A stretch of 63,968 nt of DNA, counting the filler, from Craspedostauros australis (lineage: Eukaryota): the NCBI GenBank assembly GCA_030167865.1. It is 14 parts of 14 records of this genome, joined end to end, with 100 filler letters (N's around TTAATTAATTAA, not from the genome) between each part and the next. Parts side by side here need not be neighbours in the genome. Positions count along the whole stretch, not along the records: positions 12,239 to 21,831 come from JALAGF010001935.1; 13 more parts are not named here. One strand, written 5' to 3'. Position numbers and translations under genes: made by a program. Shown piece after piece: positions 12,139 to 62,956 of the stretch. Each line of letters opens with the position of its first letter. The stretch's first letter is position 1. The notes beneath the pieces are model-generated. The model saw only the letters and a program-made list of their open reading frames with translations, was not told the origin of the DNA and made no database searches.

Positions 12139-12238
12139 NNNNNNNNNNNNNNNNNNNNNNNNNNNNNNNNNNNNNNNNNNNNTTAATTAATTAANNNNNN
12201 NNNNNNNNNNNNNNNNNNNNNNNNNNNNNNNNNNNNNN
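12139..12238. other. Artificial contig linker (N-run, TTAATTAATTAA, N-run); first of 13
   Basis: The same 12-mer, which puts stops in all frames, sits inside N runs at 12183, 21876, 24442, 25898, 42966, 44391, 48133, 51004, 52743, 57741, 59254, 61354 and 62900. Confidence 0.97.
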
Positions 12239-12321: not shown

Positions 12322-12729
12322 TTGCAGCAGTGGCCAATAGTATGGTTGTTGGTGCAGATTTGGCTGTCACAAGAAAACTGGTGCTTCTACTGCTGGCACT
12401 GCTGTGTCTTGTTGTGGCAGTGGCCATTAGTGTGGTTGTTGCTGCGGATATGGCTGTCGCTGTGGCTGCCATGGGATTGCTGCTGCTGCCGCTGTCGATG
12501 GCGGTGGTGCTATCGTTGGTGCTGTTGGTGGTGCTCGCTGCTGCTGCCAATCCATTGATTGCTATCGCCAATTCAGTGCGAGTAGTTGGGGTGCCAGGTG
12601 CTGTGCCTGTTGCGATCCTGCTTTGCCGGCACGATTGCGATTTGTCTTGGATCGTGCTGGACGAGAAGCTGGCTTGCGTTGCGTTGGTGGCAGTGGTTGC
12701 GACTGAGGCCCATTCTTGTGCTGTTCTTT

Positions 12730-13470
12730 GATTTGAAGCGCCTGCCGACTTTCTTGCACATGATCTGGTGTCCGCCCCTCTTTCTTCAGTTTGGCCTTGT
12801 TGAGATGAGGGATCTTGAACTTGTTGCTACCCTCAGTCTCTATGATCTTGTTCATCAGAGTTTCCAGCGTGATGAACATATGCAAGAGTTTTGACGAATC
12901 GTATTCACGAAACATAGTTTCCATGTGCGCAACGAGTTCATCAATTGTCATACATCTCATTCGTAGTTGCGTGGATTGCAGGCTGCAGAAGCACCCAGGA
13001 TCAAGAATGTTCAAGTCAGGGCTCCTTGCAGGTTGTGTCACAAGTTCGATCAACCTGTCCCCCACTTGCATTTGTATGTTGCAACAAAGAACTGCCAATG
13101 ACCATTCCAAATTGAAGCGAAGTCCTTCCCAGGTAGATTAGCTGGGGCATGTCTTGTTGGATGTGTACTGTTTTTTCCCTTTTGAGAACTTCTCCATGAT
13201 AGCAGGGACTACTCTATCCATCAAGAGATCCGTGTAGGTTCCTCTTGCGACAAATCGAGAATTCCAGATCAGAGTCCCTTTGACTCGATTCTTTGAAGTG
13301 CGATGGGCAGGAAGCTCATCACCAGTTGGCCAGCATCCAATCTTGCCATCGAGCCACTCGCTAGAGACAGGATCAATGCGTGGCTTCGCCACTGCTGCGA
13401 GAAACATCATCGTTTGGATTGTGGTCGTGGCTGTGTTGCCGTATCAGGGTGGAGGGTCTTCGCCTGCGAC
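12730..13470 (-). pseudogene. Decayed Tc1/mariner transposase (plant/oomycete DD39D-like), C-terminal half
   Basis: MFLAAVAKPR...DGKIGCWP...RTSKNRVKGT (ORF 13138-13410) and QPARSPDLNILD...FCSLQS...GSNKFKIPHLNK (ORF 12562-13110), broken by stops and frameshifts. Confidence 0.85.
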
Positions 13471-14554: not shown

Positions 14555-15475
14555 ATCACAACTGAATAAAATCAACTTCTGTTGATCACACCAGTGACCC
14601 ATCACAAACGTGCCCGCTCCCAGTCGTACCAAGAAAGATACCGTGTCCTCCTTTTGGTATGAGAACCATGAACATGTGACACAGCATGTCCCGATACAAA
14701 CCAACAAAACAACAACCTTGTCGGTGATGTCAGACCAGAAAGGGTGCAGGGGCAGTGGGTAGGAGTTGTATCCCACCTGAAGAAACGGAAACCAACATAT
14801 AGTGGACACAACCCATGCTCTTGATGGACAAAGGTCAATGGTATGATTGAACAAACAGAAAGTTCAGAAAAGCAATCAAGATCGATCAATCATCAATGTT
14901 AGAACGAAATCGAAGATGGGTCGTAGGGTACCGCACCGAAAACGCAGAGTGATCAGATCGTTGTTGTTGGTGAGGATATTGTTGATTATTGAGTTATTCG
15001 TATGGTAGGATGTTGACAAGCTCCAAAGATTGAGATCTTGGAACTGTGAGCATGAGAGAGGCATGGCAGGTCTCATGCAATTGCAAGTGAAATTAACACG
15101 GAGACAACACGACAAATGTGCGTGTTACTGCGTGAAGTAGAGTTGGCAAAAGTCAATGAACAAAACACCACAATACCCCGTGTTGTGAATTATGTCTTCT
15201 CACGATGTTGTTTGTTGTACGATCACACGATTGATCATATTCACTTGAGAAGGTCATGGCAAGATTCGCATGTGTCGCACCCAAGACCGAAGTCTGTCCT
15301 GATTGGACAGAGAGGTTCATCTTGGCAAGAAATCCATTTCCGCGACATTTTGGATCTGTGATTGACGGGAAAACGGTTCTTGCGACGCGAAATGTGACAC
15401 AAATTTGACACAACGGAATTTTGACCAAATTTCCGTTCGGAACGGAAAAGGTAAGAGAAGTGGAGATTTCTGATT

Positions 15476-15682
15476 TATCAGCACAAAATCGAATAGTGCT
15501 AAAGTACGTTACTCCCGTAGCCCCCACTATCTATAAATTTCACTTGTGTTCGGTTCAGCAATCGCATCGCCTGTAGCTCAACGGTAGAGCACCAGTAATT
15601 CTNNNNNNNNNNNNNNNNNNNNNNNNNNNNNNNNNNNNNNNNNNNNNNNNNNNNNNNGTGATTTTTCGATAGTGCTCTAATA
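15476..15682 (+). repeat. 5' LTR of the TRIM (N gap at 15603-15657)
   Basis: Runs TATCAGCAC...GTGCTCTAATA and has the same length as the 3' copy. Confidence 0.9.
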
Positions 15683-15696
15683 GATTAACAGTCGCA
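15683..15696 (+). promoter_or_regulatory. Primer-binding site GATTAACAGTCGCA, complementary to the tRNA-Asn(GUU) anticodon arm
   Basis: The reverse complement TGCGA-CTGTTAA-TC fits tRNA positions 27-40 with a GTT anticodon. The same 14-mer follows a Copia LTR at 59538. Confidence 0.8.
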
Positions 15697-15932
15697 GCTA
15701 GTTCTACATCGCTGAGTTAGGACAACCTTGCACAACACGCCTTCGTGGGCGCGTTGCGATCACCGCATTTCGACCCAGTCTCACACTTGTCTGCTACGGC
15801 AGCACTCCCACTTCGTCTGGCAGTATTAGCCACCCAACAATGAGGGTGCCCCGAGATGGGGAGACGCGGGAGATGACAACTTTCCGTCATAGTGCTCTTG
15901 AGCAGGTGGTCCACGGTCGTAGCGTAGGGGAG

Positions 15933-16139
15933 TATCAGCACAAAATCGAATAGTGCTAAAGTACGTTACTCCCGTAGCCCCCACTATCTATAAATTTCAC
16001 TTGTGTTCGGTTCAGCAATCGCATCGCCTGTAGCTCAACGGTAGAGCACCAGTAATTCTAACTGAGGTTCCGGGTTCGAATCCCGGCATGGTACTTTGCT
16101 TTTGCTCTCCCCTTGTGATTTTTCGATAGTGCTCTAATA
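15933..16139 (+). repeat. 3' LTR of the TRIM
   Basis: Fully sequenced copy, preceded by the PPT and followed by the TSD. Confidence 0.9.
16024..16094 (+). ncRNA. tRNA-like Pol III cassette inside the LTR, not a canonical tRNA (second, partly masked copy at 15567-15637)
   Basis: A box TAGCTCAACGG (16031-16041), D stem GCTC/GAGC, B box GGTTCGAATCC (16073-16083), perfect T stem CCGGG/CCCGG, TATAAA at 15989-15994, T-runs downstream. The acceptor stem pairs only 4 of 7 and the anticodon loop AATTCTA lacks U33. Confidence 0.8.
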
Positions 16140-16283
16140 TGATTGGTCGACGGGTGTCGCTATTGTTAGAGATTCAGCGTTGCGCTAATACAATTCGTGT
16201 GGTGCCAAGGCTCGGAGACGTTCAATTATTAGACTGATAAATTCCATGCAACACGTGTGTTTAATTTAAATGAAATGTACAGT

Positions 16284-17361
16284 CTAATCGTGACCCATTC
16301 GCTGTCGGGCTGTGGACAGCGCCTTGTCGACGTCGAACGTTGGATAGCCGTTACCGAGTTCGATTTGGGTGATGACCATCACCGCATGGAAGGCTGTGTG
16401 GTGTTTGTCCACGTGGTGTCGCCACTTCTGTCCCAAACAGCTCCACTGCTTCAATCTACCGTTAATCGTTTCGTGGCGAGCACGAAGAATGCCATCAGCT
16501 TTGAACGTGGGTGGGAACACTTTGTCATCTCCTCTGTAGCCGTTGTCAGCAATCACAACCTCGTTTGCCCGTATTGCTTGTTTAAGCTCAGAGCGGAAGA
16601 TAGCCAGGTCATTCATGTATCCACACGGAAAGGGGCCATTCACCCAAACAATGTCTCCTCTACTGATGGAAACAGCCACTTCATACCTCACACCAGCAGC
16701 TTTGAACTTGTGCGAGTACCACACCTTGTTAAACGGTTTGGGGTCGTTAGTGCGAAAGTCGGTGCCGTCGACAGTCAAGAAAGCACTCCCATTTCTGTCT
16801 GCGTCAATAAAGCGGTTGTCTAGGTCAATCTGTAGGCAAACAAGATGGATACGAGCAGTCACGAACGGAAATTGTGAGTGAGTCGTGTTAGGCGGAAAAA
16901 AAGAGTTCGCATCGGTCGGGGTTCTCATGTGCTGCACTTACGATGTCATGACGCAACTCCTCAACGGCCCGAGCCACGACCCACGCCCACTGGCGGAAAG
17001 TTTTCGCAGTGGTGTTCATCATCCGCGCCACCACTGTCTCCGCCAAATACATTCGGAGGAACGAGCACATCCAAAGGAGGTGCTTCGGCTTCGCATTGCA
17101 GGGGAGAAGATCTGTGCCAATCAGGTCTTCCCAGAGGAGGTGAGTGATGGATGGATCAGTGCCAAACATCCCACGAAAATCCCACAACTGTGCATTGTTG
17201 AGAGTGTCCATGTCACGGTGATCCACATCATCTCCCATCAGCAAAAATCCTTCCGCCGCAAACTCACAAGCGCTGGTACTCTCCGCTGCCAAATCCGTGT
17301 TTGCGAGTCGTGCCTGAGTAGTGATTCGACTATGTGGAATACAAGTTCGCGTGGATTTCAA
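16284..17361 (-). mobile_element. PIF/Harbinger-ISL2EU (PHIS)-like DDE transposase; exons about 17361..16942 and 16829..16284
   Basis: Catalytic motifs TVDGTDF, IADNGYRG and RARHETINGRLK, plus WYSHKF and VWVNGPFPCG. N-terminal KPKHLLW..SFLR.Y. The GTAAGT...CAG intron at 16941-16830 gives RHDI/IDLDNRF in frame. Start uncertain; first in-frame ATG at 17238. Confidence 0.85.
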
Positions 17362-21831: not shown

Positions 21832-21952
21832 NNNNNNNNNNNNNNNNNNNNNNNNNNNNNNNNNNNNNNNNNNNNTTAATTAATTAANNNNNNNNNNNNN
21901 NNNNNNNNNNNNNNNNNNNNNNNNNNNNNNNAGTGAATGTTTCGTGTCTTTT

Positions 21953-22665: not shown

Positions 22666-24200
22666 CTACCATCCCATGAGCTTGGACCGGAGACGCTCGA
22701 ACGCGTCTCGGGCAAGCCCCTTTGTGAAGATGTCTGCGATCTGAACCGGTGTTGGAATGTGAAGAATGCGAATGAAGCCTTCCTTGACCCAGTACCAAAA
22801 GAAGTGCCACTTTGTCAAGAAGTGTTTGGTTCTCGATGTCACTTTGTGCTGTGTGGCCAGTGCAATGCATGCCTCGTTGTCCTCAAACACAGTGCATTGG
22901 ATATCTGTTTTGAGAGGCTCCTGCATTTGCGTGGCGGCGGCCACTTCGCGAATCAGCTGCTGGATCGGGATGAGAGCTCGCATAGCGAGTGATAGAGCTG
23001 CGTATTCAGACTCCATGGTTGATAGCGCAATCTCTGTTTGCAGCTTGGATTTCCAAACGAGCGGACATCCCCCCAGCACTACAACGTAACCGGTTCGGGA
23101 TCGCACTGCATTGGGTGATTCGTGTGCTTCCCTCTTATACAGCCCAGCGAAGTCGGCGTCCACGTAGCATTGGAGGTCGAGCTTCCCAGTTGGCCGTACG
23201 ATGGTTCCTTGTGTTCTGGTTTGCTTGAGATAGCGAACGATCATCTTCATGGCTTTTGCGTGGGGTTGTCGTGGATCGTTGCCGAAGCGAGCAACCTGAG
23301 ACACCGCATAGGCCAGATCTGGTCGGGTGTTGGTAGTCAGGTAAAGCAACATGCCAACAATGGACCGGTAGTTCCAGCTCTCTTTCATTGGTGGTGAGTC
23401 AAGACAAGCTCCCAAGGCGAGTTGTGTCGTTGGTACAACATTCGGATTGCAGTTTTCCATTCCGGTTGCCGCTATGATCTTGTTGATGAGCCCTGTCTGT
23501 CGCAGATGGATGGTTCCGTCCTTTGGATTCCTCGTAAGCTGGATCCCAAGGAAGTCCGAGAAGGTGCCTTCTTGGGTCAGTTCGAACCCTCGTCGTCGCA
23601 TGGAAGCAATGAACTGGTTGGTTTCTGCTTGCGTACGGGAGGCGATCCCGGCATCATCCACATATAGCACCATCATCATGCCTGGTCGAGTGAACAAGCA
23701 TTTTTCATGGTCACACGCCTTGAATCCTTCCGCTGTGAGTGCTTTGATGAGGTGCTCATACCACAGCCGAGGTGCAATGGTCAGTCCGTAAAGACTCTTC
23801 TCCAGCTTTAGGCACGTGTTCGGCCCTTTGGACGAGCGAAACCCCCGTGGTGGATGAAGGAAGACTGGCTTGTGGATTCGAGCTTGGACGAAGGCGTTCG
23901 TGAAATCAATGGAGGAAGTCACCCAGCCAAGAAGCACAGAGACCATAAGGAATACTCGGACGGAAGGCCAAGCCACCACCGGTGCGTAGGTGCTGGCGTC
24001 CTCGGACATGAGGTCACCTCTGCAGCACCATCTCCCTTTGTACTTCTTGACGGATCCGTCTGGTAGGCGCTTGCGGCGGAAGACCCAGGTTCCTGGATAG
24101 ATACGGTCGGTGGCTTGTTCTTTTGGTATCTCTACCCAGGTTCCCTTGCTGGTGAGATCGTCGATCTCCTTCTGTGCAGCTTCCATCCATCTTCCTTTGT
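22666..24200 (-). mobile_element. Ty1/Copia pol (RT-RNase H), interrupted at its 5' side
   Basis: WVFRRKR...KYKGRW, IDFTNAFVQ, KSLYGL, YVDD, YVDADFAG, ADIFTKGL. Confidence 0.95.
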
Positions 24201-24396
24201 TGTTGATAAAACGATAATGAAAACGAAGTGAACTTACTGAACGCCGAAGGGTGATCAATCCGTGGTAGTACAGTAGGTTGGTGAGTTTGAGTGTGAGTGT
24301 GTCTTAGTCTTTAAAAGCTGTACGAATCCAAATGAGACTTTCAAAAGGATTGTGAGCATGTGATGTGCAGCATCCATTATAGTTGGATCTGCAACA
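24201..24396. repeat. LTR of another element nested in the Copia pol, 196 bp
   Basis: TGTTG...CAACA termini; pol-like sequence stops at 24200. Confidence 0.65.
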
Positions 24397-28800: not shown

Positions 28801-31113
28801 CATCAGACTCTTACCCCGCAGATCGTACCATCCTCCAACAGCCAAAGCTCCCCCTGGGGCACTCAAACTGTGTTGTTGTCCGCTTTCGAATGAGTAAACG
28901 CAGCTCGCACATCATTCATTGTCATCATTGTCGGCCACGTTTGCTGCTCGTCAGCCCACACCGCAATGGAGATGGGGAAGATACCACCGGTTGTCCTCTG
29001 CTCTGCTCTACTCTGTTCACCCATACCCATGGCAAACCGCAACATGATCATTCACGGTGGCGGATGTGGAGGCCGAAACCTCAGTCGATCCTTGATGTTG
29101 AGGTTGACGTTGATAGTGATGTTTCTGTTGGCAACTTTGTCATTTTCGGGGGCTTGTTTGCGACTCACGTGAGAGAGAGAGAGAGAGGGAGAACACGCAT
29201 TGATGTGAATACCTTCTGCGATTCTGGTCCATTGCCATCGTCACTCCTTGGGCCACTGACGAACGCACATGTGACAAACTATCCTTCGGGACAGGCATAG
29301 GTAGTATGTCGTGGATGGTATCGAGGCTTCACACCAATGGTCCTGGCTTCGTCACGCGTACTACGATGATCCGCCCCTGATCGACTCTACCTGCATCCGT
29401 GCATGGCATTTTGTTCACCGGTTTCTATTTCAAGGGTGGTAAGGCCCACCACAGTTCACGAGTATCGTTGGTGTGTGCGTGATGAATGTGCACAGTGCGA
29501 GTTCTCGGTGACATGTTCGACTGCTACCGTTCTACGAAGGACCTTCTTTGCCCAAGCAGAAAGATACCAAGACAACGGTCGCGTTTTGTGGCCTTTTGTT
29601 TGCGCTTTCCTCCATTTTCAATTTCTCCTGGTTGTGACCTTAGCGGGGATACATCAGCGCCGATGCCTCCGTATAGTGCCTCATGCTGGTACTGTGCTCG
29701 TGGAATATTGGTGCCCTCCCCAACAATACCGCTCCCGCAATTCACACGTCACCCCATCGTGACACGTGTGCACCATCACGATGCCGCCCGACACGACGTG
29801 ACGCTGTGCGTCACAAGAAGAAGGGGACGAGAAGAGAGGGTCACGCCGCGTTCCTATTCTCCACACGCGGCTCAGTTATCGCGCATCATTGACTCGGCGA
29901 TGTCTGCACCTTGTGAGTAAGTCGTGGGTGTGATTGAGGCCTCCAAACTGGTGCATCGCGTGATTGATACCGTAATTGGCATATTTTTCTACTTTTGTGA
30001 CAAAGGATGACACAGGTGGTCATCAGCGTGACGTACAGTGGAAATGGTTTTTCCGCAAAACATATGGTCACTTCAATCTCGCGGGCGAATTCCTTGTGTT
30101 CCATTCCTCCGGAAGGCAGCTTTGCGGTTAAATATCGTGACGTCAAGAGAAACTGAATGGTCACAAAGAAACCTGGCACATTCAACTTCGTGCTTCGCGG
30201 TTTCGTCTCATGATATTTGCCGGTTTGGCTGGTTTGACCACATTTTGGCTCCCGACCGCCGCAACCCACCCAGAGGAAGCTCACAAAAACAAAAAGCAAG
30301 AGAGAGAAAGCCACAACAAAACTCGCCGCTTCCGACACCACAAAGAACAAAGAAACAGAACAACGACCACCATCTCATCATCTCATCATCCTATCATCCC
30401 ATCATCCCATCATCCCATCATCCTATCATCTCGCCTCATTCTCATCCTCATCCTCATAAAGCAAACAGTCTCCTGATTGTGAACTCTCTTCACGCCATTT
30501 CAGCACGCTTCCACCAATTCGTGGAATACACTTATCCTTCGTTTGTTACGATCACAGTATCACTATTACTGCAACTATTGCTATTTGCCAGAGACATCGA
30601 ACACGGAACACTCGGGAGCCAAAGCGCAGAGCAGAGAGCACAACAACAAACAACGAACAACGAACGACGAACAGCAAGCAACTGGCAACACCCACCGAAC
30701 GAAAAACTTCAACAGCGTTATCCCAAAGACCACCCAGCACCTTCAGCCAAACATACCGTAGTACCTGCACATCCAGGATCAACGAACGCACAAGCGCACC
30801 CACACCCACACTCACATACACAACCACAGTGACCATACCAACGCTGCCCCTCCTCTCCTTCTGCATCACATCATCATCATCATCGTCACCATCACCATCA
30901 CCCGGTTGAGTTGACAGTTGACAGCCGAAGTATCGCATCATATCACATCACAAATAACGCAAAAAGGATCACAGAGCCAACGAAGCTGCTTCACGCTCTG
31001 AAACGACACTGAGGCACAATCTTCCCCAGCATCATCAACAGACCATCCCCATTCCATTCCACACGGACACTCACAACTTTGCGACCGCGCAACCGCACAA
31101 CCGCATCTCGAAG

Positions 31114-34100
31114 ATGGATCATCACCACCACCAGCACAATCAACACAATCAACACAATCAACGCAATCAGCACCATCAGCACAACCAACAACAGCAAAGG
31201 CAACGGAACGGAAGCTTGACCCATGCCCAGAGTCATTCATTCTCGCACGGACACCCAAACGCCCCTATGTATACTAGTACCGCGCCGTTCATGATCGCAG
31301 CTGATCACAGCAGTGGTCTCAGCGCCGGCAACAAGAGGAGCATCAGCGGCCAAGCCAAGCAGGCAAGCGCCCCTCATCACATGGCCATGCGAGCCATGCC
31401 ATCTCTGTACGACGCCACTGCTCGCCTCAACGAACCACCGCAGAAGAGAACGAGGCTCGTTTCGGCACTCTCCACTCAGGATGAAGTCATCGCGACCGTC
31501 ATGGCGCTCAACAACCACAACGCCATGAAGTTCTTCGCTGCTGGTGACTATGCTCGGGCAGAATCATGCTTCCTCCACGCCATGTCGATCCTCAACGAGC
31601 ACTGCCTCCAGTTCCTCACCGCCTCGTCCCTCGAAGCCTTGGCTTCTTCCGAACAGGCCAACAATACAGCATGCGCTTCAGTCGGAATCCACCTTCCTGG
31701 AACGGCTGCCGGCGCATCCAACGGTACAACCAACGGCACCGTGACCGGATCTCCCCACCACCAGCACCAGCACCAGCACCAGCAGCAGCAGAAGTCGGTA
31801 ACGAACGAACAGAGGAGATACGACTTTGAACAATCCAAGGACACATCTGCCTCTGGAATTCTCAGTGCCACCTCTCTTTTGGAGCTTCTCAACACCTCGA
31901 ACAGCGCCGTTGCTTCCGCTTCCACCTCTGCATCCGCAACGACATCGACATCGACGTCAATGTCGAAGGCGCGAGTGACCACATGTTCCGCCTCCATGGT
32001 CTCGGCATCGAAGCCATGCGTTCTGTCAAGTTTGCTCAGCATTGAGGCAACCTCCTTGCCATCGTCGTTGTCGTGGTCGTTGTCGTCCACATCCAAACCA
32101 ACATCCAAGCCCACACCTGCCGTTGGCGCGGCGTCGCGAATGATGGCGAACGAACAGTCCGGCGAATCCAAAAAGTCCACATACCACTACGACGAAGGGA
32201 TGCATATGTACAAAGATGTGATGCCACTCTCCGCGGAGATCTACCGACTGATGATAGACAACGGCGGAGCGCAGGCCACCTACCACGCCATGGGATTCAT
32301 GAAGTTCGCCATCCTCTACAACATTGGGCAGACCTGCATCCACCGCAACGAATTCGAAAAGGCGGAGCAATGGTTTCACCAGGCTCTGGTCGAGTGCAAC
32401 GCATCCAGCTCCATCGACACCACAACGGCGCTGCTCAAGCTGCTTCACAACCTCGGATACTGTGCATTCCGACGCAACCGCAACCTCGTGGCCATCAAAT
32501 CGTACGAGAATGCTCTCAACATCGCCAAATCGCTGATGGACACGCAGCAACGGTGCGAGTTCATCGCATCGTCGCTGAACTGCGTCGCCGTCATGAAGTT
32601 CGTGCAGCACCCGCAAAAGCAGGCGACCCTGGAATCCGCCAACATGCTGCAGCACAGTCGCCAGATCTACAAGCTCCTGCTCGAGCAGCAGCATCAGCGC
32701 GAACAGCAGAAGAAGATGCGTGCATTCCACACGGATCAGCAACCCTCAATCTTCGCATTCCCATCATCATTCCTACCATCGTCGACGTTGTCGTCATCCA
32801 ACTCATTCTCCGGAACGAACGCGCCATCTACGCCGAATCATGCCTTCAACGCCGCTGCGGAATTCTCCGCGAGCGAGCCGCTCAAGTGCGATGATATCAT
32901 CAGCCCGGAAGGCAACACAGTCAGCGCCGCCAGCAGGTACATCGCGATGGCGACCGTACTGAACAACCTTGGCCGGGTCTACTACTTCAACCGCAGCTAC
33001 AACCAAGCGTTGGGGGTGTACACCGAGTGCCTGCAGCTGCGACAGCGGTACCTTCCAAGAGATTCGCTGGACATCGCCGTGACGATCTACAATCTGGGCC
33101 AGACCCATCACCAGCTGAACAAGTCGGACGAGGCGCTGGAATGCTACAAGGTATTTCGATCCATGATCCTGGACAAGCTCCCCTTCGAATCGCGCGACGT
33201 CGCCATCGTGCACAAGTGCATGGCGGAGCTGTACCACGAGCGCAACGAACTGGAGCGATGCCATGAGTGCCTGGAGCAGTCGCTGAGCGCGGCGCGCGCC
33301 TGTCTCGGCCCCTTCCACGCCGAAGTGGCAAGCATCCTGAACAAGATCGGTAACGTGTGCTACGAGCTGGGAATGTATGACGCCGCCATGAAGTACTACA
33401 AGCAAGGGTTGGAGATCGAACGCGTTGTGCTGGGGGCTTGCCACCCGCACACGGTCGTGACGATGGTGAACATCGCGCACATCCACAAGCAGCAGAAGAA
33501 CTTCCGTCAGGCGCTGCGGCTATACTCCCAGGTGCGGTCCATCCAGGCAACCAACGCCCAATCGGAAGGTGAGGCTGACGATGCCACTACTTCCTCGCAT
33601 GGCAACGCTGATAACAACATCAACGATAACAACACCAACATCAACGACACGGCTTCGGCCAATGGAGGACGCACACGACAGCAGAGACGGCGACGCCGCA
33701 GGTCGCAGGAACGCCAGCGCCGCGCCAACATCGACGAGGCCACGAGCTTGAGCAACATGGGTCTGATGCAGTACAACCTGAAGGACTACCGCGGCGCGTT
33801 CGAATCGTACCAAGAGGCCCTGCGCATCCGGCGTGACTACTACGAGAGCGAGGATCACGCGGACATCGCGTCGACGCTGAACTCCATCGGCCTGACGCTG
33901 TTCAAGCAGCGCATGTACGGATTGGCGCAGCAGTGCTTCGCGCAGTGCCTGAAGATCCGCAAGTCACTGCTGGGCGACGACCACCGCGATGTGGCCGTCG
34001 TGTGGTACAACATGGGCACGATCCACTTCGAGCAGGGCGAGGACGATGACGCCGTGGCGTGCTACCGCGAGACGCTGCGCGTGGAGGAAATCGCGCTGGG

Positions 34101-34539
34101 CAAGTATCACTGTGACGTTGTGATGACGCTGCAGCACATCGGTCAGGTCCACCAGCAGATCGGGCGGTTCGATGACGCCATGCAGTTCCTGATGGAGGCC
34201 AAGCGCCGCGACATCCATCGCATCGCGTTGCAGCAAGCCGATGTCGACGGAGACGAAGACGGCGACATGGAGACAGGCCGACCAACATCGGAGAAGGACG
34301 TGTTCGGACTCGCCAAGATCCACAATCTCATTGGCAACCTGCATCTGCAGCAGGGACAGGTGAAGGAGATGATGGTGGAATTCACGGAGGCGCTGCGGTT
34401 GGTGGACGCATACCACAGCGACAATCCAGCCGTCGACGGATCATCCACGAGGAGGTCCGGCATGGACTCCCTGCTGATCGCCGGGTACAACTTCTACGGT
34501 CTGAGCAAGACCAACCCACCCGCCGCGCCTGTGGCATGA
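31114..34539 (+). CDS. Tetratricopeptide-repeat protein (kinesin-light-chain/NPHP3-like repeats), 1141 aa
   Basis: Many repeats such as ATVLNNLGRVYY, AVTIYNLGQTHH, ASILNKIGNV, ASTLNSIGLTLF; His/Gln-rich N-terminus. Confidence 0.92.
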   Translation: MDHHHHQHNQHNQHNQRNQHHQHNQQQQRQRNGSLTHAQSHSFSHGHPNAPMYTSTAPFMIAADHSSGLSAGNKRSISGQAKQASAPHHMAMRAMPSLYDATARLNEPPQKRTRLVSALSTQDEVIATVMALNNHNAMKFFAAGDYARAESCFLHAMSILNEHCLQFLTASSLEALASSEQANNTACASVGIHLPGTAAGASNGTTNGTVTGSPHHQHQHQHQQQQKSVTNEQRRYDFEQSKDTSASGILSATSLLELLNTSNSAVASASTSASATTSTSTSMSKARVTTCSASMVSASKPCVLSSLLSIEATSLPSSLSWSLSSTSKPTSKPTPAVGAASRMMANEQSGESKKSTYHYDEGMHMYKDVMPLSAEIYRLMIDNGGAQATYHAMGFMKFAILYNIGQTCIHRNEFEKAEQWFHQALVECNASSSIDTTTALLKLLHNLGYCAFRRNRNLVAIKSYENALNIAKSLMDTQQRCEFIASSLNCVAVMKFVQHPQKQATLESANMLQHSRQIYKLLLEQQHQREQQKKMRAFHTDQQPSIFAFPSSFLPSSTLSSSNSFSGTNAPSTPNHAFNAAAEFSASEPLKCDDIISPEGNTVSAASRYIAMATVLNNLGRVYYFNRSYNQALGVYTECLQLRQRYLPRDSLDIAVTIYNLGQTHHQLNKSDEALECYKVFRSMILDKLPFESRDVAIVHKCMAELYHERNELERCHECLEQSLSAARACLGPFHAEVASILNKIGNVCYELGMYDAAMKYYKQGLEIERVVLGACHPHTVVTMVNIAHIHKQQKNFRQALRLYSQVRSIQATNAQSEGEADDATTSSHGNADNNINDNNTNINDTASANGGRTRQQRRRRRRSQERQRRANIDEATSLSNMGLMQYNLKDYRGAFESYQEALRIRRDYYESEDHADIASTLNSIGLTLFKQRMYGLAQQCFAQCLKIRKSLLGDDHRDVAVVWYNMGTIHFEQGEDDDAVACYRETLRVEEIALGKYHCDVVMTLQHIGQVHQQIGRFDDAMQFLMEAKRRDIHRIALQQADVDGDEDGDMETGRPTSEKDVFGLAKIHNLIGNLHLQQGQVKEMMVEFTEALRLVDAYHSDNPAVDGSSTRRSGMDSLLIAGYNFYGLSKTNPPAAPVA

Positions 34540-35707
34540 GGCGGTCATCAGGAGACTGTGATACGAGCTACATATGCACTCGCATACGCACACGCACACA
34601 TGGCAGCAGTAGGAGCAAATTCGCGCTAACAAACTCCAGCAGTCTGACATATTGTACAACCTAATAGAATCAAACCAACGCAAACAGATTCCATCAATCA
34701 CGCATAGGTACACGCAATCACAAGGTATCACATCAAGAAGAAGCCGAGGAAGAAAGCCCCTTCCGCTGCATGGAAGGTGGGGCATACCATTGCTGTCATG
34801 TATCGCTCGTACTTGCACTTATACTAATATAATGCAATAGTCGTGAAGATAGGGAGGGAGGGAATGAGATAGACTGATGGAAAGAGCGGAAGTGATCGCG
34901 CTGCGAGACCATGCGAAACCGAAATGTGAATTTGTGACGAAAAAAGACCCCTCATTCCCGAATACCTTCGATCCCGTGAAGAAGACTGCTCTTCGTCAGG
35001 ACGCCCGACGATGACGTCATCCAATGTTGTTCTATCGACTCATTCGATCAATGGAATTCAAACTGAACTGATTTCGTCGATGCTGACGATGGCGGCCAAT
35101 CGGAGATGAGCCCAAATTCGAACGCGATGACGATGGCGCGCACCAACGCGACGTGCGGCCGCAAGGACACCAAGAACAACAGTAGCAGCAGCATTGGCAG
35201 TGGTGGCAACATAACTCATAGCATAGGACGATCACCAGAGTGCATACGGCGAGAAGCACACACAAGCGAGACGAAGCCTCTTGCAGCTGGTGTCACAACA
35301 GCCATCAGTCGCAACTGCAGAAAGGCATTGATCTGTCCATCGCATCCAGAGTCTGACAGAGCAGGGTGGAGTTGAAATCCATCAATTTCGGAGGGAAAGA
35401 AGAGGAACGGTGCGAGACGAGTACGAGTACGCGTATGAGTAGCGTAGAGTACCATCCACACTTGTACTCCATCATACTCTGCCTATCCTCTGTGCATATC
35501 CTCGTCAGCAGTTGACGTATGCAAGGACAGCAGCGACCAGACCTTGGCTGAGCCGGAGAGCAGCCTGGAAAGGGATTGCTATTGCTTCATTTCGTTCCAT
35601 TCTTTTCAATACAGTACAGAGAGTAAAAATACTTTATTGCAGCGGAGAAGGACACAAGGAAAGCACTAAGAGGAACCCCCATTCGAGTACTCGTATTCTC
35701 TCGCATC

Positions 35708-38308
35708 ATGTTGAGGCCAGGCCATATTCAAGCCCAGGTCCGCCTGGTGCAGAGGCGGTGCAGATCATGGACCACATCGGTCGGAGCAGTTAACGGTGCA
35801 GGAACCCTGGATGCATCCACGCAGCAGCGTCAATGGAGAGGAATGAGCACCAATACACAGCAATTCTCATCGATGGCGGCAGAATCGGAGGATGAAGGCA
35901 CGCATCTGCAGGATAGAAATCTCAACCAGGCAGCGCATCTGCATCATGGTGAGACGGACTCCGGTCGAACAGCTCCATCTCCATCGCACAACCATGTCAA
36001 TGGCAATCGAAGCAGCACCAAAAATGGACATGCTCATGCCAATGATCGCAACACACGAAATCGTGATCGTGCCAACGCCTTTGGCTATTTGAATGGTTCC
36101 ACCAATGGCCATTCGAGTTATCACTCCAATGGCCATGCCAGCCGTGTTAATAGTCATCCAACCGAACATGGCTCACTATTACGTTCGACACGGCAGGACA
36201 TGCAGCAGCAGGGCCAGCAGCCAAGTGGGTATGCGCAGCACGATCGAGGGATCTGGAATGCTGAGAAGAATGGAGTCAACGGCGTCAATGGCATGTATAA
36301 TATGCATAGCATGGATGGTAGCACCGCAAGCCAAAATCACGACGCAAGCAATACCCCCATCAGCAACGAGAACAGTATCGGCGCTAATCCAAATCAACGG
36401 AAGCGACAGCAACAGAAGCGTACTCGCAGATCTGGAGGCGGCTCGCGAAGAGCTTCCAAGACTCATAGCATCCATAACACTCACAACAGCAACAGAAACA
36501 GAGATACGAACTCAGAACCACTGAAACCGCCCTTCAGAATGTCCAAGTTCTCAATGCGCAACCCCACGGACCCGCAGTGGGACCTGAAGGTTCAGGACGA
36601 GGCGGAGTTGGCACTCTCGTGGTGCGTGGAGAACGTGTGGCAAGGTGGCATCTTCAGTGGCCTCCTCCTCCTCGACAGGATCAGCACCAACGACGATCTC
36701 GTCTCCAGACCCTCCGTGCACCAAATGGCCAAGAAGATCGCCTGGGCCAGCTCAAGGACCAGCTCACCCAGTCTCGCCAAGCAGCTCACCGAGGTCATGG
36801 GCAAGTTCCTGCTGCACTCTGGCGCTTGCCACACCTTGGACCCGGAAGTCACTTTCGGGATACGCAGATCTTTGCTCAACTGCTGGTCAAAGCTGCGGGA
36901 CGTCAACGGCACGGGCAAGACGGTGCACAGAGCATTCCTCGACCTCAAGGACGCCGCGACGATCAGCGAACACAACCCTCTGTCCGACGCCGCGTCCGCT
37001 TGCTTCATCAAAAGAATCGACAGCATCGTGTACAACCAGGTCATCAACGCGCTCGCCAACGATGGCGAAGTCGAGCTTGCCGTCTCGGTCCTGGAGGAGA
37101 TGATCCACAATCCGATCGTTCCAGTGGACCGCATCACATTCAACACCATACTCAAGGCGATCTTCAACTCCAATGAGCCGGATACCATGGTCAAAATGTC
37201 CGACACAATCGTGACTCTCATGCATCATCTCAACAGTTCCCAGTCCCACAACACAGAGGACGGCATACGTCCCGACATCCACACGCACAACATGAGGCTT
37301 GCCATCCTCGCCAAGAGCTCCCATCCGCGAAAGGCCCACAAGGCATGTCAGATATTGGATGAAGTGGAGAAATTGAGACAGGACGACTCGCAGCAAGACC
37401 CCCGACCCTACAAAAAGGTCTTCGTCTCCATCTTGAAATTACTCACCGTGTATCATGCTCAAGTGAAAGACGCGGACAGAGCCTTGCGCTGCATGGTCGA
37501 AGCCGGATGCACGCCTCCGCCCACAACCTTCAACGCCGTCATCAACTGCTGGGCCAAATCAAATCACAACAATCCAGGCAAGATGGCCAGCGACCTGCTC
37601 ACCTACGTCAAGCAACACCGGCGGGACTTCCGCAGCGACGTCGCCACCATCACCATCCTCCTCAACGCATTCGCCAAGGGCGGCCACTACGACGAGGTAT
37701 TCCTCCTCTTCGATCGTATCTTGGAGACTGCCACCGATCCGGATCTTCCGGACAGGCTGAAACCCAACAAGCTCACTTTCATGGCGGTGCTGCGCGCGCT
37801 GGCCAAATCGAATCGAACAGATGCTGGTGAGCGGGCGAACAAAATTCTCCTGCAGATGCAGTCGCTGCACAACGAGTACGGCATCGACTGCAAACCCGAT
37901 ACCATCGTCTTCAACGCCGCCATCAACTGCTGGGCCAAATCGAACGTGCCCGAGGCGGGACACGAAGCGGGACAGCTCCTTCACGACATGAAACAGCTGG
38001 CCTACATACAGGAACCGAACCTTCAGCCGGATTCGGTCACGTTCAACGCGGTCATCCACGCCCACGCCACCGCCAAGAACAATCGTGATGCCACGTACCC
38101 CAAGATTGCCGACATTCTCGATGAGATGACCACGATGGCGGAAAATGGACAGAAGGTCATGAGGCCATCCAAATGGGCGCTATCTGCCGTGAAGAAAATC
38201 ATCCAGGGCGACAAGAACGCAGCACAGCAAATGGCGGCGGCGTTGCAGAAATTCCGCCTGCTGGAGCGAGTTCCGGAGCTTGCGCAACTCTTCAAACGAA
38301 AGCTGTGA
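35708..38308 (+). CDS. Pentatricopeptide-repeat protein, probably mitochondrial, 866 aa
   Basis: PPR motifs (VYNQVINALA, TFNAVINCWAKS, KPDTIVFNAAINCWAKS, PDSVTFNAVIHAHA). The Arg-rich, acid-free N-terminus resembles a presequence. Confidence 0.9.
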   Translation: MLRPGHIQAQVRLVQRRCRSWTTSVGAVNGAGTLDASTQQRQWRGMSTNTQQFSSMAAESEDEGTHLQDRNLNQAAHLHHGETDSGRTAPSPSHNHVNGNRSSTKNGHAHANDRNTRNRDRANAFGYLNGSTNGHSSYHSNGHASRVNSHPTEHGSLLRSTRQDMQQQGQQPSGYAQHDRGIWNAEKNGVNGVNGMYNMHSMDGSTASQNHDASNTPISNENSIGANPNQRKRQQQKRTRRSGGGSRRASKTHSIHNTHNSNRNRDTNSEPLKPPFRMSKFSMRNPTDPQWDLKVQDEAELALSWCVENVWQGGIFSGLLLLDRISTNDDLVSRPSVHQMAKKIAWASSRTSSPSLAKQLTEVMGKFLLHSGACHTLDPEVTFGIRRSLLNCWSKLRDVNGTGKTVHRAFLDLKDAATISEHNPLSDAASACFIKRIDSIVYNQVINALANDGEVELAVSVLEEMIHNPIVPVDRITFNTILKAIFNSNEPDTMVKMSDTIVTLMHHLNSSQSHNTEDGIRPDIHTHNMRLAILAKSSHPRKAHKACQILDEVEKLRQDDSQQDPRPYKKVFVSILKLLTVYHAQVKDADRALRCMVEAGCTPPPTTFNAVINCWAKSNHNNPGKMASDLLTYVKQHRRDFRSDVATITILLNAFAKGGHYDEVFLLFDRILETATDPDLPDRLKPNKLTFMAVLRALAKSNRTDAGERANKILLQMQSLHNEYGIDCKPDTIVFNAAINCWAKSNVPEAGHEAGQLLHDMKQLAYIQEPNLQPDSVTFNAVIHAHATAKNNRDATYPKIADILDEMTTMAENGQKVMRPSKWALSAVKKIIQGDKNAAQQMAAALQKFRLLERVPELAQLFKRKL

Positions 38309-39279: not shown

Positions 39280-40725
39280 TCATATAATTGCAAACTGGGT
39301 TGCATCACCCAACGACAAATGATCATCGTCCAGATTGAACAGCTCATCTCCAAAGTCAATGTCCGAGAAGCAGCTTTGCGTGTCACCGAGCTCCTCCAAT
39401 GTGGTGTCCACCAAGTCTCCGGTGGGCGTGCTGTAGGGCAATGCCAACGCAGAAGTTGGGGATGGGGCTTGGTTGGCAAACATGCCACGATGCTTGCCAT
39501 TGAGGATGATGGTCTGGTAGGAGGTTGGGCGTCGCTGTGTCGTCGGATGGGCATTCTGGGACACACGGCCGCGGTTGTTAGCGTTAGCGTTGGCGTTGGC
39601 GTTGGCAACCTCAAGGTCCTCGTGGTGGAAGTTGCCGGAGTCGTGCTGGGAAGATGGCTGGACACGCTGTTGATTGGGTTGCGCGGATTGGGCGGATGCC
39701 GCCATCCTGAACAGCTTGCCGTTAGATTGTGACAGTGGGCGGTACACCTTGCCTACGTACCGACGATGGTGTTGGTTTACCGTGCTTCGTGGCCGGGAGC
39801 AATTGCGGAGGATATCGATCAAACTATCGAAGCGTTCATCAATCTCAGATTGCCCATTTGCTGGTTGAGGTTGTGGGTCTGTGTTCGGGTAGTAGCTGTT
39901 GGTGTTGGTATCGGTATTGGTGTTGATAGGTTGGACGGTTTGGGCCTGGGGGTTCACGGTTTGGATCACCGAGATTTGGGGATGTACAGATTGAGTCCTT
40001 GGGACATCAATCGTAATCGTGCGGACGGCTTCGGTTTCATCCTCGCTTTTGGTTCTCGCTTCCTCGTGGAACGAGTCATCGCTCGGAGTTGTGGGCGCCT
40101 CCTCGTTCAAGGCCTGGGCACGGGCACGCTCCACGACCTCAAGATCTCGGACATGAGGCATCGTGTGGAAGTCAGGCTCAGTCTCCGGAGACGACGCCTT
40201 GCGGACCCAGGTACCCTTGATGCGCTTGCGTTGGATCCTGGGGCACAGGAAGGGACGTTGTCGCAGGAAGCACTCGTGGTAGTACCCACCGCGGTCCTCG
40301 CCATCTCGAGTGAGGCGCTTGAAGCCGTACAGGCTAAGCTGGCGAAGGAAGGATTGCTTCTTCTGGTGCTGGAAGTAGTTGGGCAGGACCTCTTCGGCGA
40401 ACCTCTTGGTGTCATGGATGCGGAAGGCACGTCCATGCGGGAGCCAGCTGATGATATCATCGTACCCGTGGAGGCTGGCCTCCTCCAGGGCCTTGTGGAG
40501 GAGCATGGGGAAGGTGGTTTGGACACCGCCTCTGGGTGGTCTCATCCTCGTCTCTTCCTCCACATCTTCTGGGATGAGGTCGCTGTGATCATGATAATCA
40601 TGCAGCGTGTAATGCCTCAAGTAGCCCTTGTGGGTGAAGGGACCAGTTCCGCGCCTGCGGGGCTTTCGTTTGCTGGGTTTGTTACCCGCGCCCTGCGAGG
40701 TTCGCTTGGTTCTTGGATCTGACAT
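39280..40725 (-). CDS. Heat-shock-factor family transcription factor, 481 aa
   Basis: HSF DNA-binding domain FPMLLH...IISWLPHGRAFRIHD...SFLRQLSLYGFKR...YYHECFLR, with diatom-type flanks HDYHDH and EPDF. Confidence 0.95.
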   Translation of the reverse strand: MSDPRTKRTSQGAGNKPSKRKPRRRGTGPFTHKGYLRHYTLHDYHDHSDLIPEDVEEETRMRPPRGGVQTTFPMLLHKALEEASLHGYDDIISWLPHGRAFRIHDTKRFAEEVLPNYFQHQKKQSFLRQLSLYGFKRLTRDGEDRGGYYHECFLRQRPFLCPRIQRKRIKGTWVRKASSPETEPDFHTMPHVRDLEVVERARAQALNEEAPTTPSDDSFHEEARTKSEDETEAVRTITIDVPRTQSVHPQISVIQTVNPQAQTVQPINTNTDTNTNSYYPNTDPQPQPANGQSEIDERFDSLIDILRNCSRPRSTVNQHHRRYVGKVYRPLSQSNGKLFRMAASAQSAQPNQQRVQPSSQHDSGNFHHEDLEVANANANANANNRGRVSQNAHPTTQRRPTSYQTIILNGKHRGMFANQAPSPTSALALPYSTPTGDLVDTTLEELGDTQSCFSDIDFGDELFNLDDDHLSLGDATQFAII

Positions 40726-43021
40726 TTGAGTTGGGGGAGTTTGGAGTATTTTAGGGCACGAATAGGTCCTGTCACTGATGTCTGTGTCTGTGTCGATGTC
40801 GATGTTGGTGCGGAGATTTTGAAGTTGATTTTGATAATGTTGTGCTGTGTTCGAATGTTCGTGTCTTTGGTTGGAGATGTGTATGCGCTCTTGTGGGTGT
40901 AATGGATGGTGGATACCGGCGCAGGGAGCGATAATGATAGTTATACTTGTGCTGCTGTTGCTGCTCTGTCGCTTTTGCAGGTGCAGGTGTAGATGTATTG
41001 GTGCTTGTACGGATGGTCTTTGCAGGTTGGGGCATTGGCGGTAGTCCTGAGTTGCTTTTGGCTGAGAAAATGAGCACTTGGCAACTCGGTTGTAGATTTT
41101 TTATGGTTGACGAAAGCAACGAGAACAGGAGGGTCTCGGATGATGAGGATGCTGACCTTGAGTTTTGGGATTGACACTGCTGTCAGCGATGTCAGTGCTG
41201 ACGATGCTGATGACGATACGTGGTGACGAGCTGAAGCCTTGAGAAGTGGAGGTGGGCTTGGCTTTCCGAACCATGAAAAGGCAGTGGGGGCGCATCCAAT
41301 CCAAGATGGGGACCTGGTGTTGGAGGAATGTGGCTGGTTGCGGGTCTCCTTTTGTCCACATGAATGTGAAAGCGATCGTAGCTACTCTCCTCTTTCCGCA
41401 GTTGAGCATGTCACGTACTGCATGCCATGCCATGCCATGCCGTACCATACCGTTTCTTCCATTATCGAACCGTGCTATCACCTCGTTCATGCAAGGTCAG
41501 GGTTCGGGTCGGAGGCTGCGATACTCCCTCATTTGTCCGCTTTTAGGCCAAACGGTGGTTTGATCGGAAAAATTTGGCTTGGCCGTTCTTGGACGTTCCA
41601 GAGGTGCTTCGCGATGTCCAACGATGTTCAACAACGACAACCTTCACAGCGGGTTTGTGGCCATCGTCAAGATGATGTTTTGGCGCGGCTTGGGCCCAGA
41701 ATTCCTGTGTGGTGACATTTGCAGTGTACGTGTAGGGGTCGGAAAGAAAGAAACAAGTAAGTAAACAAACGTGCGCTATCTGTTCCAGGTGCCATGCCTA
41801 CTCGAATGTACTCGCACAAGGTATGGTACGAGACATGATACTCCTATCAGGAAGCCATCGGTTCCCTTGGCGCTCACGCAGTGGTGCTCATGATGTTCGG
41901 AAGGAAGAGTGCCAGCTATTACATGTAGCTCATAGAGTTGTGGAAGCAGAGCAGAGTTGAGTTGAGTACTCTGTTGCAGTATCCGACTTTGTGACTACCG
42001 AAACGGATCTGGGCACTGCACCTGTTCGAATGATACCTAATTGCGTGTGGACGCGAGCTGTCGCCCAAACATCATCCATGAACGAAAGAAGCCGGTCTCC
42101 TCACGATGTTCCGCTGCCACAATGTTCTCCGGTAGTCTCTTTCATGAGAAGTTGTGTTTTGGCGTTCCGATTGTCGCTAACAAGATCGCGGCAGTCTGGG
42201 ATTCAACTTGTGTGGCGAAATGTGCGCCATGGTCATGGTTGGTGCACCGCGATACTCGCGCGATCCCATGGCACACATGCTGTGTGTTGGTTGTAGTCGT
42301 ATGCATCCGAGCGGAAGTATGGCACGAGTTGGTGGGAGGGTGATGGTCGGTGGCGCAGCCTCCGCTGTGGCTCTCCCTCTCTGGTTTTGCGATTGGCTGT
42401 GTTGTGACAACTCCCATCTGTTTGTTGATGGCCAAAATCCGAAGGTTCGCGCCAAGGGATTAGACTTCTCCGGCGAACTTGAAGCGTCACAAGTCAATTC
42501 TCTTTGTGTGACTGTGAAGACTGTAGCACTTCAACTTTTGTACCACCTACGACCTGCACCAAATGCAGAATGGGTCACGATAACACTAGTTGTGGAGTTT
42601 TACTCGTGATGAGTCGTGATAAAGTAGACTAAAATAGAGCACACCCAAAACCATCCAAACAACTGCTTATGATGTTATATCTCAACACCATATCGTTTAA
42701 AATTAAAACTAGACAGTGCATTCGGACGCTTGGCTATCGTTTATTCTGAATATCTCAGTTAAATTTGTATGAACTTTATTTTTAATGTCATTTTGGCTTG
42801 CTGTCAGTCAGGTGGTGGGTGGCAAAAAATTCGGGGTGCCACCATGCTGCCCTACCTTCAGCACCCATGGTCATCATTATCATCCCTGGCATTTTCACAA
42901 TCTGCGCACCACATTGGCTCCNNNNNNNNNNNNNNNNNNNNNNNNNNNNNNNNNNNNNNNNNNNNTTAATTAATTAANNNNNNNNNNNNNNNNNNNNNNN
43001 NNNNNNNNNNNNNNNNNNNNN

Positions 43022-59309: not shown

Positions 59310-59551
59310 CTGTGTGTTGCAACACATGTTGCCTCAGCATCATTTTCATCATTTCATCTCCATCTGCTCACAATTCAGACTCCAACAGTTCTGCATTGGG
59401 CCAGCTTACATCATCTAAACATCAATTAACCACTCAGAGCACACTGACAATTCCTACTAGCTTCACTCTACTTCATTTGACGGACCTGATCACTCCCAAT
59501 CTCGAGGTAAGTACCCATTTTTGTCTGTGTTCTATCAGATTAACAGTCGCA
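59310..59551 (+). repeat. Partial 5' LTR (ends TCTATCA at 59537) plus PBS GATTAACAGTCGCA (59538-59551) of a Copia element
   Basis: A CA end abuts the same PBS as in the TRIM and lies about 500 bp upstream of a gag-like ORF. Confidence 0.7.
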
Positions 59552-59786
59552 ACCGCCTACATCCTGTGCTGAACGCGTGAACCATCGTCATATCCCATTG
59601 TCATTGAGCATTCATCAAAATCATCATCTTGCAACATCGCGTGACGACGTGAAGTTGATTCCATCTCTGTGACTTCAGCTTTGCTGCGCAGAACATCAGA
59701 GCCAATCGGCTTGTGCACACTCACTTCCATCACTTTTAGACGCATTCGTCAGTGATATCCATTGCCTTTTTACCCAAGTACTTCAT

Positions 59787-60020
59787 CAACACATCATCCA
59801 TTTGGTATCGATCACATCCGATCTACCAACACATCATCCATTTGGTATCGATCACATCCGATCTGCCAACACATCACACAAACAAACAAACCATCAATCA
59901 ATCAATCGAACAATCAATCAATCAATCAAACAAACAATCATTCGAACAAACAATCAAACAATCAATCACACACAAACAATCACACACAAACAATCACACA
60001 CAAACAATCAAACACAAACA
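59787..60020 (+). repeat. 40-bp tandem duplication (59787-59876) and CAAT/CAAA simple repeats in the Copia leader
   Basis: Directly visible. Confidence 0.85.
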
Positions 60021-60037
60021 ACAAACTACATTCCAAG

Positions 60038-61309: not shown

Positions 61310-61409
61310 NNNNNNNNNNNNNNNNNNNNNNNNNNNNNNNNNNNNNNNNNNNNTTAATTAATTAANNNNNNNNNNNNNNNNNNNNNNNNNNNNNNNNNNN
61401 NNNNNNNNN

Positions 61410-62855: not shown

Positions 62856-62956
62856 NNNNNNNNNNNNNNNNNNNNNNNNNNNNNNNNNNNNNNNNNNNNT
62901 TAATTAATTAANNNNNNNNNNNNNNNNNNNNNNNNNNNNNNNNNNNNNNNNNNNNG

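Follow-up and report, generated by a model that had tools for sequence, protein, structure and literature searches.

A probable Helenus-type miniature retrotransposon with a decayed tRNA gene in each terminal repeat in the diatom Craspedostauros australis

What kind of element consists of two 207-bp direct repeats, each holding the remains of a tRNA gene, on either side of a 250-bp interior that is too short to code for gag or pol? The question was raised by a 664-bp locus of the diatom Craspedostauros australis (assembly GCA_030167865.1), found in a stretch of 63,968 bases that was analysed as a whole (hereafter, the window). The locus is probably a real TRIM (terminal-repeat retrotransposon in miniature) of the Helenus type ('TRIMp3'), non-autonomous and recently inserted, the assignment to this type following from the decayed tRNA gene in each long terminal repeat (LTR). 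The window was built from 14 contigs joined by 13 linkers (44 N, TTAATTAATTAA, 44 N; e.g., 12139-12238 and 21832-21931), with TTAATTAATTAA giving a stop in all six frames, and contigs side by side in it are not necessarily adjacent in the genome. The TRIM lay on the contig at 12239-21831. Its features are given below, in window coordinates.

15471-15475 (+): target site duplication (TSD) TGATT, 5' copy, matching 16140-16144.
15476-15682 (+): 5' LTR, 207 bp, with 15603-15657 as N; 100% identity to the 3' LTR over called bases.
15532-15537 (+): TATAAA of the 5' LTR (LTR positions 57-62), 30-35 nt before the first position of the tRNA-like unit.
15567-15602 (+): 5' part of the tRNA-like unit, all that is legible of it in the 5' LTR, with the A box at 15574-15584 and the rest under N; identical to 16024-16059.
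15683-15696 (+): primer-binding site (PBS) GATTAACAGTCGCA, immediately following the 5' LTR; complementary to tRNA-Asn(GUU) positions 27-40.
15683-15932 (+): interior, 250 bp, with no run of four T (sequence reading).
15926-15932 (+): polypurine tract (PPT) AGGGGAG abutting the 3' LTR; a tract type shared with Copia loci.
15933-16139 (+): 3' LTR, 207 bp, free of N, with termini TATCAG...CTAATA (repeat comparison).
15989-15994 (+): TATAAA of the 3' LTR, with the same spacing to the tRNA-like unit (sequence reading).
16024-16094 (+): tRNA-derived unit, with the Rfam match at 16029-16088 (35.4 bits), the A box at 16031-16041 and the B box at 16073-16083.
16100-16103 (+): TTTT (LTR positions 168-171), candidate terminator for RNA polymerase III (Pol III) just 3' of the tRNA-like unit (T-run scan).
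16119-16123 (+): TTTTT (LTR positions 187-191), with its 5' LTR counterpart at 15662-15666 (T-run scan).
16140-16144 (+): TSD TGATT, 3' copy (sequence reading).

The two repeats were identical at all 152 called bases (152/152). Identity extended over two blocks, 15476-15602 with 15933-16059 (127 nt, 100%) and 15658-15682 with 16115-16139 (25 nt, 100%), both at a spacing of 457, and the N run between them in the 5' LTR measured 55 nt, exactly what is missing (207-127-25). The LTR termini formed an imperfect inverted repeat. A 5-bp match such as that of TGATT at both outer edges is expected by chance in 1 of 1024 cases. Stop-to-stop frames crossing the interior reached only 82-83 aa, under the 130-aa cut-off of the Pfam scan. 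The succession TSD-LTR-PBS-interior-PPT-LTR-TSD had been proposed in a first-pass annotation of this DNA, together with LTRs identical wherever they are called; both proposals held, and the evidence on the PBS, the PPT and variant copies presented below strengthens the reading as a TRIM. The 8-mer ATAGTGCT occurred at 15493, 15669, 15889, 15950 and 16126, which makes three distinct sites per element (near each LTR end and 44 nt before the 3' LTR), far more often than expected by chance in 457 unique bases; it may be a binding site or what is left of an older LTR end.

The tRNA-derived unit was recognized by the Rfam tRNA model over positions 6-65 of its 71, with a score above the gathering score of 29 and an E-value of 1.8e-05 (1.1-kb search). 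It was the sole gathering-level Rfam match in the whole window. As a background control, 80 metagenomic loci of diatom-type Copia elements (399,414 bases) yielded no gathering-level match; these loci were chosen as relatives of the Copia reverse transcriptase (RT) encoded in the window, at 38-62% identity, and are the best 80 of 274 confirmed relatives obtained from 614 pattern matches. ARAGORN called no tRNA in the window and, with relaxed thresholds on the element, gave only poor and mutually overlapping calls. The unit was unevenly preserved: the D arm (16033-16047) and the T arm (16070-16086) paired perfectly, while the acceptor stem was paired at 4 of 7 positions and the anticodon loop, AATTCTA, was non-canonical. 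Both internal promoter boxes were intact, box A as TAGCT at 16031-16035 followed by CGG at 16039-16041, and box B as GGTTCGAATCC at 16073-16083, with GGTTC at 16073-16077. In the 5' LTR, the A-box half alone was visible, box B falling inside the N run. The first-pass annotation had suggested that promoter parts were what remained of the tRNA, and this proved accurate, with TATAAA and an A box in each LTR, the B box and the D and T arms intact in the 3' copy, and the acceptor stem and anticodon loop decayed.

Other small-RNA modules were searched for in the same region. No match to 5S rRNA was obtained at E up to 10 in 15300-16400 or at the gathering score in the window, which rules out identity with Cassandra or Ajax, and no hammerhead ribozyme matched at E up to 10 in 15300-16400, which rules out a retrozyme.

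The PBS at the inner edge of the 5' LTR covered 14 nt and was the exact complement of tRNA-Asn(GUU) positions 27-40, which cover the anticodon stem's 5' strand, its loop and two further bases. Exact copies of this 14-mer were found in at least 120 viral-contig loci. In 65 of the 120, it lay inside a tRNA-Asn(gtt) gene called by ARAGORN, and its complement started 7 nt before the anticodon in all 66 tRNA-Asn(gtt) calls (66/66). The complementarity ended at tRNA position 26, which is commonly a dimethylated G that blocks reverse transcriptases.

Diatom-type Copia loci displayed the same register on another tRNA. The sequence GGTTATGAGCCCAA occurred in 15 of the 80 loci (12 exact, 3 with one mismatch), always on the sense strand and outside the pol match (L006, L016, L022, L029, L032, L050, L052, L058, L063, L064, L066 and L068-L071). 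In 93 of 116 viral loci, GGTTATGAGCCCAA proved complementary to tRNA-Met(cat), again with an offset of 7. The Copia elements of the clade are thus primed by a fragment comprising the 5' part of a tRNA up to position 40, the PBS being that for tRNA-Met(CAU). The shared offset indicates that the TRIM uses the primer register of the Copia clade, on a different tRNA. An ARAGORN call of tRNA-Asn in one further Copia locus (L049) was discarded as spurious, being inside pol, 102 nt long and without Rfam support. In the part of PMC10886601 used here, Copia, Ty5 and the fungal Copia-linked Helenus elements, the last with TSDs of 5 bp, are described as being primed from the anticodon stem-loop.

The PPT also resembled that of Copia elements. 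A purine run of at least 7 ending in GRAG and followed by T or A was found within 120 nt after pol in 45 of 69 Copia loci (1 of 70 was dropped, with less than 60 nt left after pol), for a shuffle expectation of 0.05 per locus. The tract of the TRIM, AGGGGAG followed by T, fits this post-pol pattern, and a Copia fragment of the window carried GGGGAG then T at 22649-22644, just past the pol stop. Several Copia loci also had no CA directly before the PBS (e.g., ...CTGATA in L052 and L063); repeat pairs in the 80 loci were mostly overlaps of contig ends, from which LTR ends are not definable.

Further copies were sought inside and outside the window. BLASTN of the element against the window returned no second copy. 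One public sequencing run (X1) held 0.31 of the sampled words, and two others (X2 and X3) held next to none and gave no aligned contig. Sixteen X1 contigs fell on 14900-16800, of which 11 showed at least 99% likeness, 3 between 95 and 99%, 1 between 90 and 95% and 1 less than 90%. They covered 15658-16141 and bridged both the LTR-interior and the interior-LTR junctions; none fell on the unique flanks of the locus, which proves nothing about absence. Among the X1 pieces listed, two interior variants (1 and 10 differences, respectively, over 110 nt) were found, as were two other 3' flanks. In one contig, the LTR end was followed by 123 nt unlike the window flank; in another, the LTR end (to 16135) was joined to a 90%-alike copy of 15003-15165 (17 differences, 1 gap), so that 15003-15165 is itself a repeated stretch. 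The TRIM had landed beside this repeat at least twice, at different distances. The highest depth among the X1 pieces listed was that of two short unitigs, 16054-16113 and 16054-16107, coinciding almost exactly with the stretch that is N in the 5' LTR (equivalent to 16060-16114). This pattern suggests several diverged copies with a conserved core around box B, as judged from the assembled pieces, and is not a genomic copy count.

The same data bear on two explanations that dispense with the element as described. In the first, the locus is an assembly artefact, the 5' flank and the first 127 bp of the repeat coming from another copy and having been misjoined over the N run. The window does consist of 14 joined contigs, the 55-N gap lies within the 5' LTR, and it coincides with the high-copy core, where assemblers fail. 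However, 15658-16144 is contiguous and already runs from an LTR end through the interior and a full LTR into the flank, while the gap has exactly the missing length and TGATT recurs at both outer flanks, so that a misjoin is scarcely credible.

In the second explanation, there is no LTR element at all, only two independent 207-bp insertions of a tRNA-derived short interspersed element (SINE) lying 250 bp apart, or a local segmental duplication around a tRNA pseudogene. Like tRNA-derived SINEs (SINE2), the locus has a tRNA head with A and B boxes and is non-autonomous; a tRNA-derived unit followed by a terminator is SINE-like, and the core at 16054-16113 was more abundant in X1 than the rest, as it would be for a separate SINE family. 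SINEs, in contrast, start at the tRNA head, lack LTRs, PBS and PPT, and depend on the machinery of long interspersed elements. Here, the repeat extended 91 nt upstream of the tRNA-like start, a segment that a Pol III transcript of a SINE does not carry, and an exact tRNA-complementary PBS and a PPT were present at the inner edges, which rules out identity with a tRNA-derived SINE. Moreover, one 5-bp duplication surrounded the whole unit rather than each repeat, X1 contigs spanned both junctions of the interior, and a simple tandem duplication does not fit because the interior is not duplicated. Paired SINEs or a duplicated pseudogene are therefore very improbable, and a TRIM is retained.

A Copia element is the most likely source of mobilization for this TRIM. 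As in Copia and Ty5, the primer for reverse transcription would be a 5' fragment of tRNA-Asn with its end at position 40; a Copia-type element resident in the same genome would provide the proteins in trans, and integration would generate the 5-bp duplication. The window contained two Copia RT fragments. The first, on the contig at 21932-24397, comprised a Copia-type RT and the C-terminal part of pol (22669-24303, minus strand; RVT_2, 133 bits), with 50-57% identity to long polyproteins from diatoms and metagenomes and with Fragilaria, Mayamaea and Cylindrotheca among its named relatives. No locus was obtained when the Copia RT was used as a query in viral contigs. The second fragment followed, in the window, a contig that carries a copy of the primer site:

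59538-59551 (+): second exact Asn-type PBS 14-mer, preceded by ...CTATCA, on another contig (59310-61309); lead to an autonomous partner.

Recurrence of the 14-mer by chance is expected 4.8e-4 times per window. On the same contig, an ATG-started open reading frame (ORF) began at 60038 and reached the end of the contig (61309), passing through the N run at 61100-61153. The next contig (61410-62855, plus strand) encoded a Copia-type RT (RVT_2, 64 bits), and the following one held, on the same strand, an open frame of 337 aa at 62957-63967. The ORF at 60038 matched no gag-type Pfam family, its one weak match (E 0.02) being below the cut-off of that family; it had no relative among longer proteins and no hhalign match to a Copia polyprotein alignment. 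By protein-language features only, it resembled clusters of 53-58 unnamed proteins, whose few phylum-recorded members are diatoms. The contigs at 59310-63968 (plus strand), the first of which combines an LTR-like end with the PBS, may together represent a single Copia-like element primed by tRNA-Asn, and the locus at 59538 is taken as a lead to the partner of the TRIM, not as its identification.

How the template RNA of this TRIM would be made depends on which of its promoter signals is used. The LTR contains a whole tRNA-gene-like unit, with a TATA box, A and B boxes and a terminator. In the element, runs of at least four T were confined to the TTTT (LTR positions 168-171) and the TTTTT (187-191) that closely follow the tRNA-like unit, with none in the interior or in the LTR up to position 167. 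RNA synthesis would start at or near tRNA-like position 1 (LTR position 92), 30-35 nt downstream of TATAAA, from where RNA polymerase II (Pol II) could also be driven by TATAAA at about the same start. With the T4 and T5 runs placed after the tRNA-like unit, Pol III would mostly terminate within the 5' LTR, giving RNAs of about 80-100 nt. Under Pol III, only a read-through RNA ending at the T runs of the 3' LTR would carry R-U5-PBS...PPT-U3-R (R, repeated region; U5 and U3, regions unique to the 5' and 3' ends of the RNA), R being LTR positions 92 to about 171-191.

That Pol III transcribes the element in full is a plausible hypothesis, against which the T4 and T5 runs after the tRNA-like unit speak. 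Production of the template by Pol III from the A and B boxes comes close to being an even prospect, and production by Pol II from the TATA box is a conceivable but less favored route. A distinct form of the Pol II explanation accepts the same TRIM and treats the tRNA-like unit as a passenger, left behind by a SINE or tRNA that inserted into an ancestral LTR, and able at most to yield a separate Pol III RNA of about 80 nt. TATAAA stands at the distance from LTR position 92 that is usual for Pol II, Pol III would mostly be halted by the T4 and T5 runs right after the unit, and autonomous LTR elements are transcribed by Pol II, as stated in the part of PMC10886601 used here. This passenger explanation nevertheless seems rather unlikely. 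Decay has affected the acceptor stem and anticodon loop but left both the A and the B box perfect, which suggests selection on the promoter parts, and the deepest and least variable X1 piece among those listed was 16054-16113, which holds the B box. The element also has no AATAAA-type signal; such signals are poorly defined in diatoms.

A fuller scenario for the origin of the TRIM can be put forward tentatively. In an independent event in diatoms, a TRIM would have captured a whole tRNA-gene unit and become driven by Pol III, using the 5' half of tRNA-Asn as primer and living as a parasite of a Copia lineage that shares this primer. Several subfamilies would have the conserved 60-nt core at 16054-16113 in common; its main product would be a small, abundant tRNA-like RNA, and the template would come from rare read-through of the terminator.

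Several observations weigh against a Helenus-type TRIM that is mobilized by Copia and transcribed by Pol III. A full-length Pol III transcript requires read-through of both T runs of the 5' LTR. The LTRs end in TA...TA and not in the canonical TG...CA, a feature that is typical rather than defining. The tRNA-Asn sequences used for comparison were viral stand-ins and not those of the host. No Asn-type PBS was found among the 80 Copia loci, where 9-mer matches remained at chance level, and the TRIM had no DNA in common with these loci beyond chance matches of 12-14 nt. Similarity between the TRIM and the locus at 59538 outside the 14-mer was rejected, since it was reached by 931 of 2000 shuffles upstream and by 247 of 2000 downstream. 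Patterns from the LTR core had no match in viral contigs (19-mer), metagenome contigs (22-mer) or contigs of prokaryote genomes (22-mer). Finally, X1 is possibly the source of this very assembly, and its kind (RNA or DNA) is a guess.

Among known systems, the TRIM was closest in structure to Helenus, a TRIM with a tRNA-like sequence in its LTRs described by Kojima (2024; PMC10886601). According to the part of that article used here, Helenus has hosts among fungi, in six animal phyla and in Selaginella; it is a structurally defined group, for which several origins are proposed there. Shared features are short LTRs each with a tRNA-like unit, a PBS and a PPT edging a short non-coding interior, and a length of 664 bp within the 311-1263 bp reported there. 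TAGCT...CGG and GGTTC fit the consensus TRGCY, YGG and GGTTC of that article, the remainder of the unit being decayed. The fungal Copia-linked Helenus elements are particularly close, since their TSDs also measure 5 bp and their PBSs also pair with a tRNA anticodon stem-loop, whereas the primers named for fungal Helenus elements in the passages used are Tyr, Ile, Asp and iMet, and tRNA-Asn is found here. The host differs as well, being a diatom and hence a stramenopile. The origin of the TRIM is likely independent of known Helenus elements, to which it is assigned by structure and not by the sequence of a Repbase family.

Cassandra, a plant TRIM with 5S rRNA in its LTRs (Kalendar 2008, as cited in PMC10886601), shares the presence of a small-RNA gene with a Pol III promoter and a terminator in the LTRs. 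In the account given there, Pol III starts in the 5' LTR and stops in the 3' LTR, the same logic as the one proposed here. The module is 5S in Cassandra and tRNA-derived here, and Pol III transcripts are experimental for Cassandra and predicted for the present TRIM. In the same portion of that source, promoter function in Helenus is inferred from conservation, and Cassandra alone in the class has experimentally shown transcripts.

Diatom Copia elements (CoDi-like; Maumus 2009, PMC2806351, and the 80 metagenomic loci) resemble the TRIM in the half-tRNA primer register 27-40, in the purine run ending in GRAG before T or A, and in the non-CA LTR ends that precede the PBS in several loci (e.g., ...GATA). 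They differ in being autonomous gag-pol elements of 5-7 kb, in having a PBS for tRNA-Met and not for tRNA-Asn, and in having no tRNA-like unit (0 Rfam matches in 399 kb).

The first-pass annotation had placed Helenus in fungi, in animals and in plants, and in no diatom or other stramenopile, in agreement with the part of PMC10886601 used here. The main text of that article does not mention diatoms, stramenopiles, oomycetes or Phytophthora, and its text supplement does not mention Thalassiosira, Phaeodactylum, diatoms, Bacillariophyta or stramenopiles. No report of a Helenus-type TRIM in diatoms was found in the literature screened, partly by title. In the portions of two further articles that were used, no passage was found on primer sites, tRNA or TRIMs (PMC2806351) or on SINEs or tRNA-like repeats (small-RNA paper, PMC4247016).

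The surroundings of the TRIM formed a transposon-rich stretch. An ORF at 16287-16937 (minus strand) with a DDE_Tnp_4 domain (PIF/Harbinger-type transposase, 39.8 bits) ended about 140 bp from it. Another ORF, at 12565-13137 (minus strand, 191 aa), had no Pfam match at E up to 0.001 and contained a motif, ...ARSPDLN..., which we take to be that of Tc1/mariner-type DDE transposases. The largest contig of the window harbored ordinary host genes at 39283-41100 (minus strand), 30958-34536 (plus strand) and 35627-38305 (plus strand), coding for heat shock factor (HSF)-type DNA-binding, large tetratricopeptide repeat and pentatricopeptide repeat proteins. The HSF-type ORF resembled clusters whose phylum-recorded members are mostly Bacillariophyta.

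Cassandra, Helenus and Ajax are TRIMs that blur the line between SINEs and LTR elements, and they have been reported so far from plants, fungi and animals. A diatom member would extend the class to stramenopiles and support its repeated origin. If the Pol III-driven, independent origin proposed above is true, the element would be the first TRIMp3 in the SAR supergroup (stramenopiles, alveolates and Rhizaria) and a source, so far hidden, of tRNA-like loci in the genomes of diatoms. Such elements inflate predictions of tRNAs and pseudo-tRNAs and break short-read assemblies, as the N run in the 5' LTR shows. The primer register at tRNA positions 27-40, common to the TRIM and to diatom Copia elements, provides a useful annotation rule for diatom LTR elements, and an element of 664 bp with a defined primer would offer a compact test case of whether Pol III is able to make the template of retrotransposition.

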